Of a stretch of DNA of 64,000 nt, positions 56,273 through 63,453 are shown piece after piece. The DNA is from Candidatus Omnitrophota bacterium (GTDB taxonomy: Bacteria; Omnitrophota; Gorgyraeia; Gygaellales; Profunditerraquicolaceae). Position 1 is the stretch's first letter; every line of letters begins with the position of its first letter. Location of the stretch: assembly GCA_041649115.1 (NCBI GenBank), contig JBAZNT010000005.1, positions 12,737-76,736 of the forward strand, in the 5' to 3' direction. Below the pieces are notes generated by a model. That model had not been told where the DNA came from, ran no database searches, and worked only from the letters and a program-made list of their open reading frames with translations. Position numbers and translations under genes: made by a program.

Positions 56273-58444
56273 ATGAAGGCCCGCCTGATTATTATCGGAG
56301 TCGTATTCATATTTTCCTCGGCAGTCATCCTTTCAGCCGATGATAAAGAGAAGAGGAGTAATACCGTACAGGAACCCGTAGTGGTAAACGGCGATGTAGT
56401 GGAATATTCCTCCGAGAACAAAAACGTTACTGCCAGCGGAGACGTCTCCGTAGAATATAAAGGCGCTAAGTTGACCTGCGAAAAGCTTACCGTGAATACC
56501 GAAACCAAGCAAGGATGGGTCGAGGGCAACGTCAAGATTGAGGACGAGAAGGGTGTGATTGAGGCTAAAAAGGGGACTTATAATTTCCAGGATAAGTCCG
56601 GGGTCCTGGATGACGCGGAGTTTCGCTCCGAGCCGTATTTCGGAAGAGCCAAGAGCGTAAAAAAAGTAAGCGATAAGGAATTTATCGCTTCCCACGGTTA
56701 TGTCTCCACCTGCAGCATGGATACCCCCCATTATCGCATCAAATCCCGCAGGGTAAATTTTTTCCCGAAGAATAAGGTCGAGACCAAGGACGATATCCTT
56801 TATCTGGGCCAGGTCCCCGTGGCGTATATACCGGAGTTCAGCCGCAGCTTTGCCGACCCTTTAATGCACGTGCAGCTTAGCCCCGGGAAAAGGAAGGAAT
56901 GGGGGGCATACATGCTTTCTGCCTGGCGCTACAGCCTCAGCGATAATGCGCAGGGGAGGGTTTATTTTGATTACCGCAATAAACTCGGAACCGCCGAAGG
57001 GTTCGGGCTGAATTACCAGAGCGAGAACTTCGGCAGGGGAGATTTTAAGTTTTACTATACCGACGAAGAGAATGATAACAGCCAGGATAACGGTTATAAT
57101 GATTTCCAGAGGTATCTGGTGCGCTGGCGGCACAAGTGGGATATCGATGAACGCACCAATTTTACCTCCGAGCTCTATAAGATATCCGACCAGAAAAGAA
57201 AAAAGCTCGGTTCCGACGATAATTTCCTGAGGGATTATTTTTACCGCGAATACGAGAAAGAGGCAGAACCTTTATCCTACGGTTTATTGCACCACTCCTT
57301 TGATTATTCCAGCCTGGATATCCTGGTGCAAAAACGCGTGAACCACTGGTTTACCGACCAGGATGAGAGCCTCCCCCGGATACAATACAGCATGCCGAGT
57401 ATCCAGCTGGGAGATTCCCCATTTTACCTGCAGGATACCACCTCTTACGTGAATTATTCCTACAATGATTCGACCTCTGCCGCAGCGGATCAGGATGTTA
57501 CCTATAGCAAATTCGACAGCGCCAATAAATTATCCCTTCCTTTAAAGGTGTCCTTTTTGAAGGTGACCCCCTTTGCTTCGGCGGAGGGGGCTTACTACAA
57601 TAAGAATACCTACGGCGCAACCTCTCAGGTATTGCTGGGCACCGGTTCCGATATCAGCACCAAATTCTACCGCCTGTTTAACGTTAATTCTAATTTTTTA
57701 GGCCTTGATATCCACGGGCTTCGCCATATATTTGCGCCTAGCGTGGGTTACTCTTATATCAATACCTCTACCATGCCTGCAAGCAAGGCCAGGTTCGGAG
57801 GGGGGGCTTCTGTCGGAGATTCTTCCGTGACGATGGAGCTGGCTAACAGGCTGCAGACTAAGCGCAAAGGCCAGACGGCGCTTTTGGCTGATTTCAGGAT
57901 TAACACCAGTTACGACATCAAGCCCAAGACGACTACCGGAAAAACGGGGAGCAGTTTAGGGGACATAGTCTTTGACCTGGACCTCTGGCCTTATTCCTGG
58001 ATGTCGATCGTAGGCGATGCCACCTATACGCATTCAGGGTTGCGCAGCGACCCGAATTACAATACCTTTTCCAATGCCAATATCGATCTCAATTTTAACC
58101 TAAGCGAAGATCGAAGCATCGGTATCGGCCAGCGTTATCAGCGCAAGGCCGGGAAGGAATTGACCTTTGGCACTAAGTGGCGCATAAACCCTAAATGGAA
58201 ATTCGGGATTTATGAAAGATACCAGTTTGCCGATACCGCCGATTATCCATCCGGGTTAAGGGAGCAGGAATATTCCATCATACGCGACCTGCACTGCTGG
58301 ACAGTAGAGCTTACCTACAACGTAGAAAAGAACCACGGCAATAGCATCTGGGTGGTTTTTAGATTAAAGGCCTTCCCGGAGAACGAATTCAGCCTTGAGC
58401 AGAGCTATCATGAGCCCAAGCCTGGATCGCAAAACAATTATTGA
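56273..58444 (+). CDS. lptD: LPS-assembly outer-membrane protein LptD (OstA family)
   Basis: Signal peptide and an OstA_N-like beta-jellyroll (GDVVEYSSENKNVTASGDVSVEYKGAKLTCEKLTVN...). The C-terminal beta-barrel region is large and rich in aromatic/Gly residues. Confidence 0.8.
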   Translation: MKARLIIIGVVFIFSSAVILSADDKEKRSNTVQEPVVVNGDVVEYSSENKNVTASGDVSVEYKGAKLTCEKLTVNTETKQGWVEGNVKIEDEKGVIEAKKGTYNFQDKSGVLDDAEFRSEPYFGRAKSVKKVSDKEFIASHGYVSTCSMDTPHYRIKSRRVNFFPKNKVETKDDILYLGQVPVAYIPEFSRSFADPLMHVQLSPGKRKEWGAYMLSAWRYSLSDNAQGRVYFDYRNKLGTAEGFGLNYQSENFGRGDFKFYYTDEENDNSQDNGYNDFQRYLVRWRHKWDIDERTNFTSELYKISDQKRKKLGSDDNFLRDYFYREYEKEAEPLSYGLLHHSFDYSSLDILVQKRVNHWFTDQDESLPRIQYSMPSIQLGDSPFYLQDTTSYVNYSYNDSTSAAADQDVTYSKFDSANKLSLPLKVSFLKVTPFASAEGAYYNKNTYGATSQVLLGTGSDISTKFYRLFNVNSNFLGLDIHGLRHIFAPSVGYSYINTSTMPASKARFGGGASVGDSSVTMELANRLQTKRKGQTALLADFRINTSYDIKPKTTTGKTGSSLGDIVFDLDLWPYSWMSIVGDATYTHSGLRSDPNYNTFSNANIDLNFNLSEDRSIGIGQRYQRKAGKELTFGTKWRINPKWKFGIYERYQFADTADYPSGLREQEYSIIRDLHCWTVELTYNVEKNHGNSIWVVFRLKAFPENEFSLEQSYHEPKPGSQNNY

Positions 58445-58467: not shown

Positions 58468-59784
58468 ATGAAGATATCCATTATCGGTTCGGGATATGTA
58501 GGATTGGTGAGCGGGGCGTGTTTTGCGGAATTAGGCAATAGCGTAGTTTGCGCCGATAATAACGCCCGCAAGATCTCCCAGCTTCAGAAGGGCGTCATTC
58601 CTATATATGAGCCGGGGCTGGAAGAGCTTGTCGTAAAGAACGCTGCCAAGAGAAGGCTGAGATTTACCTCAAGCATCAAAGAGGCCGTGAAGGCTTCGGA
58701 GGTAATTTTCATCGCAGTAGGCACTCCTTCTTTAGACAACGGCGAGGCGGACCTCACCGGGATAGAGAACGTGGCCCGCAATATCGCATTATATATGGAC
58801 GGCTACCGCCTGATTGTGGAAAAATCTACTGTCCCGGTTGAGACCGGCTATTGGGTGAAACAGACTATTTCTACCTATATAAAGCGCAAGGAGAAATTTG
58901 ACGTTGCCTCAAATCCCGAATTCCTGAAGGAGGGCGTAGCCATAAATGATTTTATGCGCCCTGACCGTATTGTTATCGGAGTAGAGTCTAAAAAGGCCGA
59001 GGCCATCCTGACAGGCCTCTACAGGCCTCTTAATGCCCCTTTGGTAATTACGGATATCAGATCCGCAGAATTAATCAAGCACGCTTCAAATTCTTTCCTG
59101 GCAACCAAGATTTCCTTTATCAATGCCGTTTCGCGTATCTGCGATAAGGTCGGCGCAGATATTAAAGAGGTGGCTTTGGGGGTAGGATTGGACAAGAGGA
59201 TCGGCGGGGATTTTTTAAATGCCGGCCTTGGCTACGGAGGCTCATGTTTTCCAAAAGACCTCGACGCCTTCATTGAGATATCAGCGAAGCTAGGGCATGA
59301 TTTCCACATTCTTAAGTCGGTACGCGACACCAACGAGGAACAGCTTAGCGCTTTCCTTGCGAAGATCAAGGATGAGCTCTGGATAATTAAGGATAAGAAT
59401 ATTGCGGTATTGGGTTTGTCTTTTAAGCCTAATACCGATGACCTCCGCAACGCCCCTTCAATCGGGATCATCAAGGCATTGAAATCGGACGGGGCAAGGA
59501 TGAGGGTCTATGATCCCTCTGCCATGAAGAATGCAAAGGAATTGTTCGTTGATGGGCGCGGCATCACTTTTTGCAAGGACCCTTATCAGGCCTGCCGTCA
59601 GGCGGACTGCCTTTTGATTATTACCGAATGGGATGAATTCAAGGAGTTGGATTTCGCAAGGATAAGAAAACTGATGCGCCGCCGCCTTATCATTGACGGC
59701 CGCAATATCTATGAGCCGAAACATATGAAGAAGTTAGGCTTTAGCTATATCGGTGTCGGCAGGAAGAGCACGCCCAACAGGTAG
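58468..59784 (+). CDS. ugd: UDP-glucose 6-dehydrogenase
   Basis: MKISIIGSGYVGLVSG, with catalytic Cys in GLGYGGSCFPKDL, plus GLSFKPNTDDLRNAP. Confidence 0.93.
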   Translation: MKISIIGSGYVGLVSGACFAELGNSVVCADNNARKISQLQKGVIPIYEPGLEELVVKNAAKRRLRFTSSIKEAVKASEVIFIAVGTPSLDNGEADLTGIENVARNIALYMDGYRLIVEKSTVPVETGYWVKQTISTYIKRKEKFDVASNPEFLKEGVAINDFMRPDRIVIGVESKKAEAILTGLYRPLNAPLVITDIRSAELIKHASNSFLATKISFINAVSRICDKVGADIKEVALGVGLDKRIGGDFLNAGLGYGGSCFPKDLDAFIEISAKLGHDFHILKSVRDTNEEQLSAFLAKIKDELWIIKDKNIAVLGLSFKPNTDDLRNAPSIGIIKALKSDGARMRVYDPSAMKNAKELFVDGRGITFCKDPYQACRQADCLLIITEWDEFKELDFARIRKLMRRRLIIDGRNIYEPKHMKKLGFSYIGVGRKSTPNR

Positions 59785-59791
59785 CTTAAAT

Positions 59792-62524
59792 ATGAATAAT
59801 GCCGTTAAGGAATTCAATCGCAGGGTAAAATCTAAAAAGCTTCTGATAGCGGTAGTGGGCCTGGGTTATGTGGGATTGCCTCTGGCAATGCAATTTTCCA
59901 GAAAGGGGTTCCGCACGCTTGGGATAGAGATAGACCGGGATCGCCTCAACCGCCTCAAGAAAAGGCAATCCTATATCAGCGACGTCAGGGCGGGAGAATT
60001 AAAGAAGGTTGTAGCCTCCGGTAATTTTGTGCCGTGCGGCGAGTTCAGCGCCTTGCGGGAAGCGGACGCGGTTATTATCTGCGTCCCTACTCCGTTAAAA
60101 CGCAAGTATCACCCGGATATTTCCTATATCAGGGAGGCTGTCAGAGGTATAGGGCGTAATATCAAAAAAGGCACCCTGGTGGTGCTGGAGAGTACCACTT
60201 ATCCTGGGACGACTGAAGAGGTTATCCTGCCGCTTTTGGAAAAGGGCGGGTTGAGGCACAACCGGGATTTTTACCTCAGTTTTTCCCCCGAGCGGATAGA
60301 CCCCGGGAATAAAACCTATCCTGTCGGGAGGATACCCAAGATCGTCGGCGGGGTTAGCAGCGACGCCTCTCTTATGACAGTTGCGTTATACCGTAGCGTT
60401 ATCAGTAATGTCATACCGGTTTCAAGCGCCCGCACTGCCGAGGCCGTTAAATTACTGGAGAATACCTTTCGCCTTATCAATATCGCTCTCATAGATGAGA
60501 TAGCGATGATGGCGCATAAGATGGGTATTGATGTCTGGGAGGTGATAAGGGGGGCCAGCACCAAGCCCTTTGGTTTTATGCCTTTTTATCCCGGGCCCGG
60601 GGTCGGCGGGCACTGTTTGAGCAGCAAGGAGACTGTTTGCGTTAAAGAAGGAAACGCCTTAAAGGTAATGGCGATGCCTGATTTAATCAAGCATCTTGAG
60701 AGTTCCCCCGGCGCCGATAGCGTGGAGGTTTTGTCTTTTGACCCCATGGCAAAAAAAGGGGTTTTTAAGAGGGTTACCGCGGCTTCAGCAAGGCCTTACA
60801 GCGGAGAGATGATTAATATTGTAACCGAGGACGGAAGGCATCTTAGAGTGACAAACCTTCACCCGATGTTCATTTACCATGATGGTAAATGGCGGCTTCG
60901 CTATGCCAGGGACTTGAGGCCCGGGGATTCGCTGCCGATATGCTTAAACCTGCCTTTCTTTAATGACGGCGTCGGCAACGCCGTAGATCTTATTGAAGAG
61001 ATTCAGCGTCAAGGGCGTTGGTTGATTGATAAGGTCAGAGTAGAACCTTTGGATTTTAGCTGGCGCGACTATGCCGGAGCGATCAAGGATATATTGCGCC
61101 GTCGGTCCAAAGGTGGCATCCCGGATTGCTGTTGGGATTATCTTAGCGATAACAAGCTCCCCCTGAGATATTTTTATGAATTAGATAAATTTACCGCTAT
61201 TGACCACCGCAGGTTGAAGCTGGTTACCGGACGCGGCCCAAGCAGGAGTAGCATCCCGGCTGTAATAGAACTCGATAGTGATTTTTGCCGTCTTATCGGT
61301 TATTACCTGAGCGAAGGTTGCTATACTAAAGACAAGTCCGCCAGGATAAGGTTTAGTTTTAACCGTTGCGAAAAGGATTATATTGAAGACGTCAAAGCTA
61401 TCTTGGCGCGCTTAGGTATCAGGGCTTCTGTTTATGAGTCCAGGGCCTGGTATAGTTCGTGCTTAAAGGTGTCTTCCGATATCTTCGGTTTTCTGCTGTA
61501 TAAAGTCTTAGGCTGCGGGAGAAACTGCTATGATATGAAAATACCCTCTCGGCTTTTTAGTTTTGACAGCGAAAGGAAAAGGGCTTTGGTATCGGGCTTA
61601 TTCCGGGGCGACGGCAGCGTAGAGCATTTCTTCGGTAAATGGCGTTACCGCAGGAACGAGAAGGAATATCTGCATAACGTCAATACCGCCAACATCAGCT
61701 TTTTTACCTCCAGCAGGAAGCTTTTTCAGCAGTTGATTATATTGCTTCATGACTTAGGTATTGTGTGCACTTTCCGTAAACGTAAATACAGCCTTTCTAT
61801 ATTCGGCTGGCGGCAGTTAGAGTTTTTTAAGGATTTCTTTGCAGGAAAGAAAAAGGAGATTATCCTCAGGTACCTGGAGCTTAATAAAAACAGGCCGCGT
61901 AATAAGACTTTCCGGAAATTTGAGAATTTCGCTACGGTAAAGGTACGTTCGACCTCTGTCTCTAAGGGGGGTTGGGTTTATTCCATAGAAACCGAAAAGC
62001 CGCATGCCTTTGTAACATCTTACGGCATTGCGGTGCATAACTGCATTCCCAAGGATCCGCTTTACCTTTACTGGAAGGCGCGGCATTATGGTTTCCGTTC
62101 GCGTTTTATCAGGTTAGCCTCCGATACTATTTCTGGGATGCCGCAATATATTACCGAGAGGGTCATGCATTTGTTAAAGCACAAGGCGGCTTCTAAATCA
62201 AAGGTATTGGTAATAGGCGCCACTTATAAAAAAGATATCAAGGATTTAAGGCAGTCGCCGGCCCTGGATATCATCTCGGCCTTCCATAGGAGAGGGGTGT
62301 TGGTTTCCTACTACGATCCCCTTATACCTTATTTAAAAATTAACGGGATTAACCTTAAGGGCATCAGGCTCAATAGCGCCAACCTTAAAGGTTTTGATTG
62401 CGTTGTAATAGCTACCGACCATTCGGCCCTTGATTATTCCCTTATCCTGAAGAATTCCAGGCTTATCTTTGATACCCGTAACGCCTACGCCCGCACCAAT
62501 AACCCCAAGGTGGTAAGATTATGA
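59792..62524 (+). CDS. TviB/WbpO/WecC-type UDP-N-acetylhexosamine (nucleotide-sugar) dehydrogenase interrupted by an intein
   Basis: Extein is 434 aa: VVGLGYVGLPLA Rossmann fold, ...FYPGPGVGGH|intein|CIPKDPLYL..., and C-terminal GATYKKDIKDLRQSPA. ATG 59792 follows the ugd stop; the track start 59753 overlaps ugd. Confidence 0.9.
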   Translation: MNNAVKEFNRRVKSKKLLIAVVGLGYVGLPLAMQFSRKGFRTLGIEIDRDRLNRLKKRQSYISDVRAGELKKVVASGNFVPCGEFSALREADAVIICVPTPLKRKYHPDISYIREAVRGIGRNIKKGTLVVLESTTYPGTTEEVILPLLEKGGLRHNRDFYLSFSPERIDPGNKTYPVGRIPKIVGGVSSDASLMTVALYRSVISNVIPVSSARTAEAVKLLENTFRLINIALIDEIAMMAHKMGIDVWEVIRGASTKPFGFMPFYPGPGVGGHCLSSKETVCVKEGNALKVMAMPDLIKHLESSPGADSVEVLSFDPMAKKGVFKRVTAASARPYSGEMINIVTEDGRHLRVTNLHPMFIYHDGKWRLRYARDLRPGDSLPICLNLPFFNDGVGNAVDLIEEIQRQGRWLIDKVRVEPLDFSWRDYAGAIKDILRRRSKGGIPDCCWDYLSDNKLPLRYFYELDKFTAIDHRRLKLVTGRGPSRSSIPAVIELDSDFCRLIGYYLSEGCYTKDKSARIRFSFNRCEKDYIEDVKAILARLGIRASVYESRAWYSSCLKVSSDIFGFLLYKVLGCGRNCYDMKIPSRLFSFDSERKRALVSGLFRGDGSVEHFFGKWRYRRNEKEYLHNVNTANISFFTSSRKLFQQLIILLHDLGIVCTFRKRKYSLSIFGWRQLEFFKDFFAGKKKEIILRYLELNKNRPRNKTFRKFENFATVKVRSTSVSKGGWVYSIETEKPHAFVTSYGIAVHNCIPKDPLYLYWKARHYGFRSRFIRLASDTISGMPQYITERVMHLLKHKAASKSKVLVIGATYKKDIKDLRQSPALDIISAFHRRGVLVSYYDPLIPYLKINGINLKGIRLNSANLKGFDCVVIATDHSALDYSLILKNSRLIFDTRNAYARTNNPKVVRL
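60614..62041 (+). mobile_element. Intein (476 aa) with LAGLIDADG homing-endonuclease domain
   Basis: Block A is CLSSKETVCV (Cys1) and block B is RVTNLHPMF (TxxH). The LAGLIDADG motifs are LIGYYLSEGC and LVSGLFRGDGS. Block F is GWVYSIETEKPHAFV and block G is GIAVHN, followed by the +1 Cys (CIPKDP). The element is in frame (1428 nt). Confidence 0.9.
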
Positions 62525-63453
62525 GGAAGTTTTTGGTTACCGGCGGAGCCGGTTTTATCGGTTCGCATATCGTTGAGCTATTAGTCGGCAAGGGGCATAG
62601 CGTTAGGGTGCTGGATAATTTTTCAAGCGGCAAGATAGAAAATATCAGGCCGTTTCTAAAGAAGCTTGAAGTATTAAGAGGGGATGTCCGCTCCATATCT
62701 GATTGCAAAAAGGCTGCCAGGGGCATTGAAGTAGTGCTGCACCATGCAGCATTGAGGAGCGTCCCAAAATCCATACTTAATCCCCATGGTTATAACGAGG
62801 TTAACATCGAAGGTACCCTTAATATGCTGGAGGCGTCCCTTAAAAACAATGTTAAGTCTTTTGTATTCGCTTCCTCCAGTTCAGTTTACGGAGACGTAAG
62901 AAGCTTCCCGGAGAAAGAAGATTTCCCGCCCCAGCCGATTTCGCCTTACGCCCTTACTAAATTAAGCGGGGAATACTACTGCCGTATGTTCAACTTACAC
63001 TACGGTCTGCCGACGGTATCACTGCGTTACTTTAATGTTTTTGGCCCGCGCCAGAACCCCGATGACGAGTACGCTGTAGTAATACCTAAATTTATCAAGC
63101 TGATGCTCGCCGGTAAGCGCCCGCCCATATTCGGCACGGGTAGGCAGTCGCGCGATTTTGTTTATGTCAGGGATGTGGCGGAAGCGAATATTCTCGCTTC
63201 TGGCAGGCTCGGCTTAAGGGGGAGCGTTATTAACATCGGCTCGGGGCATAATTATACTGTGATAGAACTGACGAGGCTGCTTAATAAGATATTGCACAGC
63301 GGTATCAGGCCGAGGTTCCTGGGAAGGCGCCCCGGGGATGTGTTTAAGACGCACGCGGATTTAAGCATGGCCAGGAGATTGTTGGGATTTAAGCCGCGGG
63401 TAAGCCTTGAGCAAGGACTGAAGTCAACCGTGGAGTATTTTAAAAATGTCTAA
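62521..63453 (+). CDS. NAD-dependent sugar-nucleotide 4-epimerase (WbpP/TviC-like SDR)
   Basis: [17 protein letters not shown], and catalytic YALTK. It directly follows the TviB-like dehydrogenase with a 4-nt overlap. Confidence 0.88.

Follow-up and report, generated by a model that had tools for sequence, protein, structure and literature searches.

Inteins of UDP-glucose dehydrogenases are mentioned in the reviews based on InBase (PMC2874743), and Novikova et al. (2016) counted 10 UDP-GlcDH inteins in Euryarchaeota (PMC4760082). The 'udp' allele of Soucy et al. (2014) spans domains, with 7 halobacterial members, 6 other euryarchaeal members, including those of M. jannaschii (NP_248048.1) and Methanothermococcus okinawensis, and 2 bacterial members, from Dictyoglomus thermophilum and Fervidibacteria (PMC4071816). 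Here we analysed a stretch of 64,000 nucleotides (nt; hereafter the window) from a metagenome-assembled genome (MAG) of a Candidatus Omnitrophota bacterium (contig JBAZNT010000005.1), in which the coding sequence of a nucleotide-sugar dehydrogenase is interrupted by 476 codons. An earlier note, made from the letters of the window alone, had read this insert as a LAGLIDADG intein lying directly before the catalytic cysteine of the enzyme and related to the archaeal UDP-GD intein. This reading is borne out by profile hidden Markov models (HMMs), by an orthologue with an empty site, by a structure model and by archaeal alleles that share the site, and we are highly confident that the insert is a canonical class-1 intein of the 'udp' family, with an embedded double-motif LAGLIDADG endonuclease, in an Omnitrophota nucleotide-sugar 6-dehydrogenase. 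This allele family ('UDP GD' in InBase) is already abundant in public data, and the insert is a member of it and no new kind of element.

The dehydrogenase gene is an open reading frame (ORF) of 910 amino acids (aa) on the + strand, running from an ATG at 59792, 7 nt past the stop of the adjoining ugd gene, to 62524; an alternative GTG start lies at 59753. An identical protein of the same length is found at NCBI under the name 'MAG: nucleotide sugar dehydrogenase [Candidatus Omnitrophota bacterium]'. The ORF and the junction strings given in the earlier note were found as quoted: the N-junction, FYPGPGVGGH/CLSSKETV, falls between nt 60613 and 60614 and the C-junction, YGIAVHN/CIPKDPLYL, between nt 62041 and 62042 (here and below, a slash outside brackets marks the junction), which delimits an insert of exactly 476 aa. 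The parts of the gene are as follows, with residues of the insert numbered from its first cysteine.

59792..60613, + strand: N-extein, protein residues 1-274, ending in ...PGPGVGGH; NAD-binding domain and first part of the central domain (PF03721 at residues 19-193, PF00984 from residue 214)
60614..62041, + strand: intein, 476 aa (protein residues 275-750)
60614..60616, + strand: Cys1, N-terminal splicing nucleophile (block A), invariant in alignment A1 and in 118/118 homologues
60851..60862, + strand: block B, T80-N-L-H83 (TxxH); T80 and H83 invariant in A1, family consensus VTDxHP
60974..61261, + strand: middle domain, intein residues ~121-216 (borders approximate), between Hint-N and endonuclease; secondary structure and high pLDDT in the structure model
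61262..61897, + strand: LAGLIDADG homing-endonuclease domain, intein residues ~217-428 (borders approximate)
61292..61321, + strand: LAGLIDADG motif 1, LIGYYLSEGC, with catalytic Glu234; G229, Y230, L232, E234, G235 and C236 invariant in A1 and at least 90% conserved in 114 inteins
61583..61618, + strand: LAGLIDADG motif 2, LVSGLFRGDGS, with catalytic Asp333; G328, R331 and G332 invariant, D333 at least 90% conserved
61898..62041, + strand: Hint C-terminal part, blocks F and G, ...VYSIETEKPHAFVTSYGIAVHN, with His475-Asn476 at 62036-62041; the Ser of 'VYS' is conserved family-wide
62042..62524, + strand: C-extein, protein residues 751-910 and stop; remaining central domain and UDP-binding domain (PF03720 at residues 806-900)
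62042..62044, + strand: Cys+1, first C-extein residue and Cys of the GGHCIPxDP motif, aligned with GVGGHCLPKDP of the P. horikoshii UDP-ManNAcA dehydrogenase 4r16

The check with Hint/intein and LAGLIDADG HMMs that had been suggested for residues 275-750 came out in favour of an intein, with all four models above their cut-offs: TIGR01445 (intein_Nterm, residues 1-87 of the insert) at 36.2 bits with a cut-off of 24.5, TIGR01443 (intein_Cterm) at 26.5 with a cut-off of 15.6, PF14890 (Intein_splicing) at 39.8 with a cut-off of 35.8 and PF14528 (LAGLIDADG_3) at 55.3 with a cut-off of 22.5. Along almost its full length the segment can also be aligned with the intein parts of two archaeal models of NCBI (Tes, 108 bits; PolII large subunit, 96 bits). 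The canonical blocks and the two LAGLIDADG motifs reported before are all there (Cys1, T80-N-L-H83, HN, Cys+1, LIGYYLSEGC and LVSGLFRGDGS); Cys1, TxxH and HN followed by Cys+1, together with the Hint profile and fold and an in-frame insertion for which an empty orthologue exists, place the element in class 1. Within the 64-kb window, the intein profile matches only the dehydrogenase ORF, leaving no further intein there. The base composition of the insert (GC 0.461; GC at third codon positions, GC3, 0.53) was compared with that of the exteins and neighbouring genes (GC 0.45-0.52, GC3 0.55-0.60) and showed no clear anomaly, and therefore gives no evidence of recent arrival.

Excision of the 476 aa in silico restores GVGGHCIPxDP, as had been proposed. 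The resulting 434-aa product matches TIGR03026 in a single stretch (positions 3-413 of 413, 415.9 bits), and in the unspliced protein the same match is broken into two; the predicted ligated junction reads GVGGH-CIPKDPLYLYWK. When the spliced extein was aligned with intein-less enzymes, the second check that had been suggested, it proved collinear with the solved 4r16 of P. horikoshii and with S. aureus Cap5O, and homologues were not collinear across the 476 aa. With the characterised Cap5O/WecC/WbpA/TviB enzymes (PDB 3ojl, 4r16) the alignment runs from end to end, including the GVGGHC(I/L)PKDP motif, although, unlike the present host, those enzymes have no intein. We take Cys+1 to have the catalytic role established for the UDP-glucose/GDP-mannose dehydrogenase family.

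The identity of the host enzyme can be given at the level of a branch. Among TIGR03026 and three equivalog models, only the subfamily model TIGR03026 passes on the spliced extein; NF040825 (archaeal UDP-ManNAc dehydrogenase) scores 286.3 bits, below its cut-off of 750, NF008286 (WecC) 224 bits, below 459, and NF011729 (TviB) 210.5 bits, below 592. Because none of these equivalog cut-offs is reached, the host can only be called, on its sequence, a nucleotide-sugar dehydrogenase of the GGHCIPxDP (WbpA/WecC-like) branch, and the earlier label 'TviB/WecC-type' is acceptable as a description of that branch and no further. The intein-less orthologues go at JGI under the name UDP-N-acetyl-D-glucosamine dehydrogenase, and some homologues under 'UDP-N-acetyl-D-mannosaminuronate dehydrogenase/intein/homing endonuclease'. 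The NCBI name of the present protein is just 'nucleotide sugar dehydrogenase', and both the intein and the mature 434-aa product deserve mention in the annotation.

Closest to the spliced extein is an intein-free protein of 434 aa (P0121), 85% identical, from another Candidatus Omnitrophota MAG. The gene order on its contig (L001) is that of the window: genes for a GGDEF protein, a ROK kinase and a transaldolase, then one for an LptD-like outer-membrane protein of 723 aa, followed by ugd and by the genes of the dehydrogenase and of two epimerases. The uninterrupted site of L001 and the joined flanks of the window match at 79/90 nt, and this empty site, ...GGGGTTGGCGGGCAC/TGCATCCCAAAAGACCCG..., with its centre at GGCGGGCAC/TGCATCCCA, is a candidate target of the endonuclease. 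A second syntenic locus (L002), whose dehydrogenase P0002 is 75% identical, has the intein in the same position, the identity being ~75% for intein and extein alike. L001 on one side and L002 and the window on the other thus provide a direct comparison of the empty and the filled allele. Such filled and empty alleles within one gene order form a clean natural system for the study of homing and loss in an uncultured phylum, and the conserved endonuclease is a candidate meganuclease with a defined target. The adjoining ugd was also considered as a second homing target and appears unlikely in that role, since its equivalent site has only 29/60 nt in common with the homing site.

L002/L004 (CAYWCX010000013.1) and L005 are syntenic with the Omnitrophota locus at 67-75% identity, yet they are labelled 'uncultured Planctomycetales bacterium', a label that may be wrong.

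These data also bear on whether the 476 aa could instead be a lineage-specific accessory domain or an assembly chimera, that is, a segment that is not excisable. That the insertion is in frame would fit this idea, and nothing further does. The syntenic orthologue lacks exactly these 476 aa, the family HMM and the solved structures are collinear across the junction, the segment has strong intein HMM and fold matches, and over 100 independent assemblies show the same architecture, among them the complete Desulfonema magnum 4be13 genome. We therefore consider an accessory domain or chimera refuted, with next to no probability left to it.

The fold of the intein was modelled with AlphaFold2 on a 16-sequence alignment, giving a mean predicted local distance difference test (pLDDT) score of 91.7 and a predicted template modelling (pTM) score of 0.90. 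The top Foldseek match in the PDB was PI-PkoII (2cw7; E 8.6e-28, whole-length superposition TMq 0.66), followed by the TliVMA and PhoVMA inteins, PI-PfuI and PI-SceI, and then by free-standing LAGLIDADG enzymes and mini-inteins. Matches to I-DmoI, I-SceI, I-Tsp061I and I-OnuI-family meganucleases identify the endonuclease domain as a pseudo-dimer of the alpha-beta-beta-alpha-beta-beta-alpha LAGLIDADG fold. PI-PkoII, the Pol intein of Thermococcus kodakarensis, and PI-PfuI (1dq3) are the best PDB matches by sequence and fold alike, and share with the present intein the Hint domain, an extra middle domain and the two-motif LAGLIDADG endonuclease; they differ in their hosts (DNA polymerase and ribonucleotide reductase), in their target sites and in sequence, with only 12-18% identity. 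By analogy with these two, the ~95-residue middle domain of the model is probably an extra DNA-binding domain. PI-SceI of yeast VMA1, the textbook bifunctional intein and homing endonuclease, gave a significant fold match and has Cys1, a terminal HN and Cys+1 as here. It differs in being eukaryotic, in having a V-ATPase host and in its poorer superposition (TMq ~0.4), and its +1 Cys is no catalytic nucleophile of the host.

How the intein relates to the 'udp' allele was addressed at the level of the host, the insertion site and the intein itself. The host matches PF03721, PF00984, PF03720 and TIGR03026, which puts it in the same enzyme superfamily as the hosts of the UDP GD inteins, and the two also have in common the insertion before a catalytic Cys that serves as the +1 residue and a full-size intein with a LAGLIDADG endonuclease. 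Comparison with an archaeal allele, a further check that had been suggested, gave the same site: in Methanothermococcus sp. Ax23 (P0295) the junctions read GYGGS/C...HN/CFPKD. The window and Ax23 inteins are 30% identical (residues 1-476 against 1-460, E 1.4e-56; profile E 1.7e-77), and the exteins only 23%, the Ax23 extein being 44% identical to the intein-free ugd of the window. The differences lie in the host, which here is a GGHCIPxDP (WbpA/WecC-like N-acetylhexosamine) paralogue and in Methanococcales is the GGSCFPKD UDP-glucose type, and in the organism, here an Omnitrophota MAG. Because the identity between the inteins exceeds that between the exteins, the comparison suggests that the intein may have moved between paralogues.

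The distribution of the element was obtained by scanning one genome per GTDB species with the intein profile, which returned 162 relatives; hosts are described from the best 80 of them. The bacterial hosts among these 80 are Omnitrophota, Planctomycetota, Chloroflexota, Desulfobacterota, Cyanobacteria, Aquificota, Acidobacteriota, Gemmatimonadota, Eisenbacteria and the candidate phyla radiation (CPR), the Desulfobacterota carriers including cultured Desulfonema magnum 4be13 (L047), whose genome is complete, and the archaeal hosts are Woesearchaeota, Nanoarchaeia, Methanosarcinales, Bathyarchaeia and Micrarchaeota. At every complete locus the intein lies directly before the catalytic Cys, and the hosts fall into three branches: GGH/CIPxDP, LVGGH/CIGVDPYY (TviB/WbpO-like) and GYGGS/CFPKD (Ugd-like). 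The description of the element as a bacterial allele was correct in that it sits in a bacterium, and not in the sense of a novelty: the Dictyoglomus and Fervidibacteria members were listed in 2014 (PMC4071816), and more than 118 public homologues have the same insertion. It adds a case in which an intein has settled on a catalytic residue of its host and the host is not one of the usual proteins of replication and repair; the practical value is modest and the current understanding of inteins is unchanged.

As a separate observation, the same codon position is occupied by the same intein lineage across the three paralogous branches in Micrarchaeota (L082), Methanothermococcus (P0295), Desulfonema magnum (L047) and Woesearchaeota (L033).

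A search of 1.84 billion cluster representatives gave 245 clusters at E <= 1e-30. Dehydrogenases make up ~70 of the best 150 of these 245, and the nearest other hosts are PurL and NrdD. The PurL inteins (P0272, P0283, P0284, P0302 and P0301) have the junctions ...HYGN/C...HN/C(V/I)GVPTV, and those of NrdD, the anaerobic ribonucleotide reductase (P0303 and P0310), ...LRPF/C...HN/CFSHDLRFF. With full-length profile matches at E 1e-112 to 1e-61, they are the closest relatives outside the dehydrogenases.

Both junctions could be read in 118 intein-bearing homologues, and all 118 have the form GG(H)/C...HN/C(I/L)PxDP. Position -1 varies: in P0096 the N-extein junction reads GIGGE/C in place of GGH/C. 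The inteins of 114 of the 118 are 475-493 aa long; C1, T80, H83, E234, H475 and N476 are invariant. Four relatives (P0071, P0074, P0081 and P0082) have mini-inteins of 175-190 aa at the same site; these lack the middle and endonuclease domains, with three different deletion breakpoints among them, and the endonuclease was therefore lost independently. Presence of the intein is also uneven among close relatives: the three nearest exteins (P0121-P0123) are intein-free and the fourth carries the intein, and a neighbour-joining tree of 238 exteins requires at least 22 intein gains or losses, compared with ~80 when the labels are shuffled. Such patchy presence, along with the mini-inteins, is in these sequences the usual picture of the homing cycle.

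From established intein chemistry, it is very likely that this intein splices with the catalytic Cys as its +1 nucleophile and that its LAGLIDADG enzyme brings about homing. The 910-aa precursor would be translated with its active site split between His274 and the catalytic Cys. Cys1 would undergo an N-S acyl shift, Cys+1, the enzyme's own catalytic thiol, would attack the thioester, and cyclisation of Asn476 would release the intein; an S-N shift would then yield the 434-aa dehydrogenase with GVGGHCIPKDP restored, along with a free intein of ~55 kDa. It is a reasonable inference that the sugar-acid pathway depends on splicing. The endonuclease of the free intein would cut intein-less alleles at the site coding for GGH/CIP, into which the intein would be copied by repair, and homing of this kind would explain the patchy distribution among close relatives.

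Several points weigh against this reading of a splicing and homing 'udp' intein. Both the competence to splice and the activity of the endonuclease are predicted. With 'Mja UDP GD' the intein is linked by way of the Methanothermococcus allele and the published list of alleles (PMC4071816). A second, intein-free copy of the enzyme may be present elsewhere in the genome, our view being that of the 64-kb window. Block F reads 'VYS(I/L/V)E', with Ser at the position that Asp has in many class-1 inteins; since this Ser is conserved throughout the family, we read it as a trait of the family and not as a sign of decay. Finally, the proportion of synonymous differences (pS) is saturated at ~0.7, which makes dN/dS rough, and nonsynonymous differences (pN) alone were compared: against the 75%-identical L002 locus, pN is 0.106 for the endonuclease, 0.184 for Hint-N, 0.141 for the N-extein and 0.171 for the C-extein. 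This last comparison itself speaks for the reading: with the lowest pN of all segments, the endonuclease is kept at least as strictly as the host enzyme.

The Ser of block F, like the endonuclease loss seen in the mini-inteins of relatives, might be taken as a sign of a decaying relic, in which splicing or the endonuclease is dead and the gene is effectively a pseudogene whose function is supplied elsewhere. We regard this as very unlikely. The frame of 910 codons is intact, the splicing and endonuclease catalytic residues are all present and invariant in the family, pN is far below pS in exteins and intein alike, and the operon structure is conserved; on the intact frame, the conserved catalytic residues and the low pN, a pseudogene was rejected.

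A different question is whether the intein has been domesticated as a conditional switch, with splicing that answers redox, for example through a Cys1/Cys+1 disulfide trap, or some other signal, and so gates the uronic-acid sugar nucleotide post-translationally. Both junction nucleophiles are Cys, the one at +1 being the catalytic thiol; the intein has lasted through a long Omnitrophota divergence, intein and extein having diverged from P0002 to the same degree; and conditional splicing of other inteins has been discussed (PMC4760082). The closest orthologues, P0121-P0123, are nevertheless intein-free in the same operon context, the most conserved part is the endonuclease, as expected of a selfish element, and the sequence holds no specific sign of regulation, and such a switch seems to us improbable. 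A broader reading, which we hold to be unlikely, is that one intein lineage moved repeatedly among the three dehydrogenase subfamilies and across Bacteria and Archaea, always on the catalytic Cys and with its endonuclease under purifying selection, and that in Omnitrophota it could also switch the synthesis of uronic-acid sugars in response to redox state or other conditions; the switch enters this reading because splicing uses up the catalytic thiol as its nucleophile.

The genes on either side of the dehydrogenase are the following.

58468..59784, + strand: ugd, intein-free UDP-glucose 6-dehydrogenase paralogue; TIGR03026 463.7 bits, TuaD model 560.7 bits, below its cut-off of 700
62521..63453, + strand: NAD-dependent sugar epimerase, overlapping the dehydrogenase stop; best match the TviC model NF011728 at 206 bits, below its cut-off of 760

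The uninterrupted equivalent of the motif in ugd, which the earlier note had pointed out, reads GYGGSCFPKD. The epimerase, which resembles TviC, is also present in L001 and L002. Upstream of ugd, 56273-58444 encodes a 723-aa protein with a weak LptD match (47.7 bits, far below the cut-off); its position beside the sugar-dehydrogenase genes is kept in L001 and L002, where its homologues have no Pfam family on record. No tRNA genes or Rfam families were found in the 64-kb window. The long ORFs of the window are nearly all on the + strand: stop-to-stop ORFs of at least 150 aa total 20,095 aa on the + strand versus 4,485 aa on the - strand, and most of the latter overlap + strand genes.

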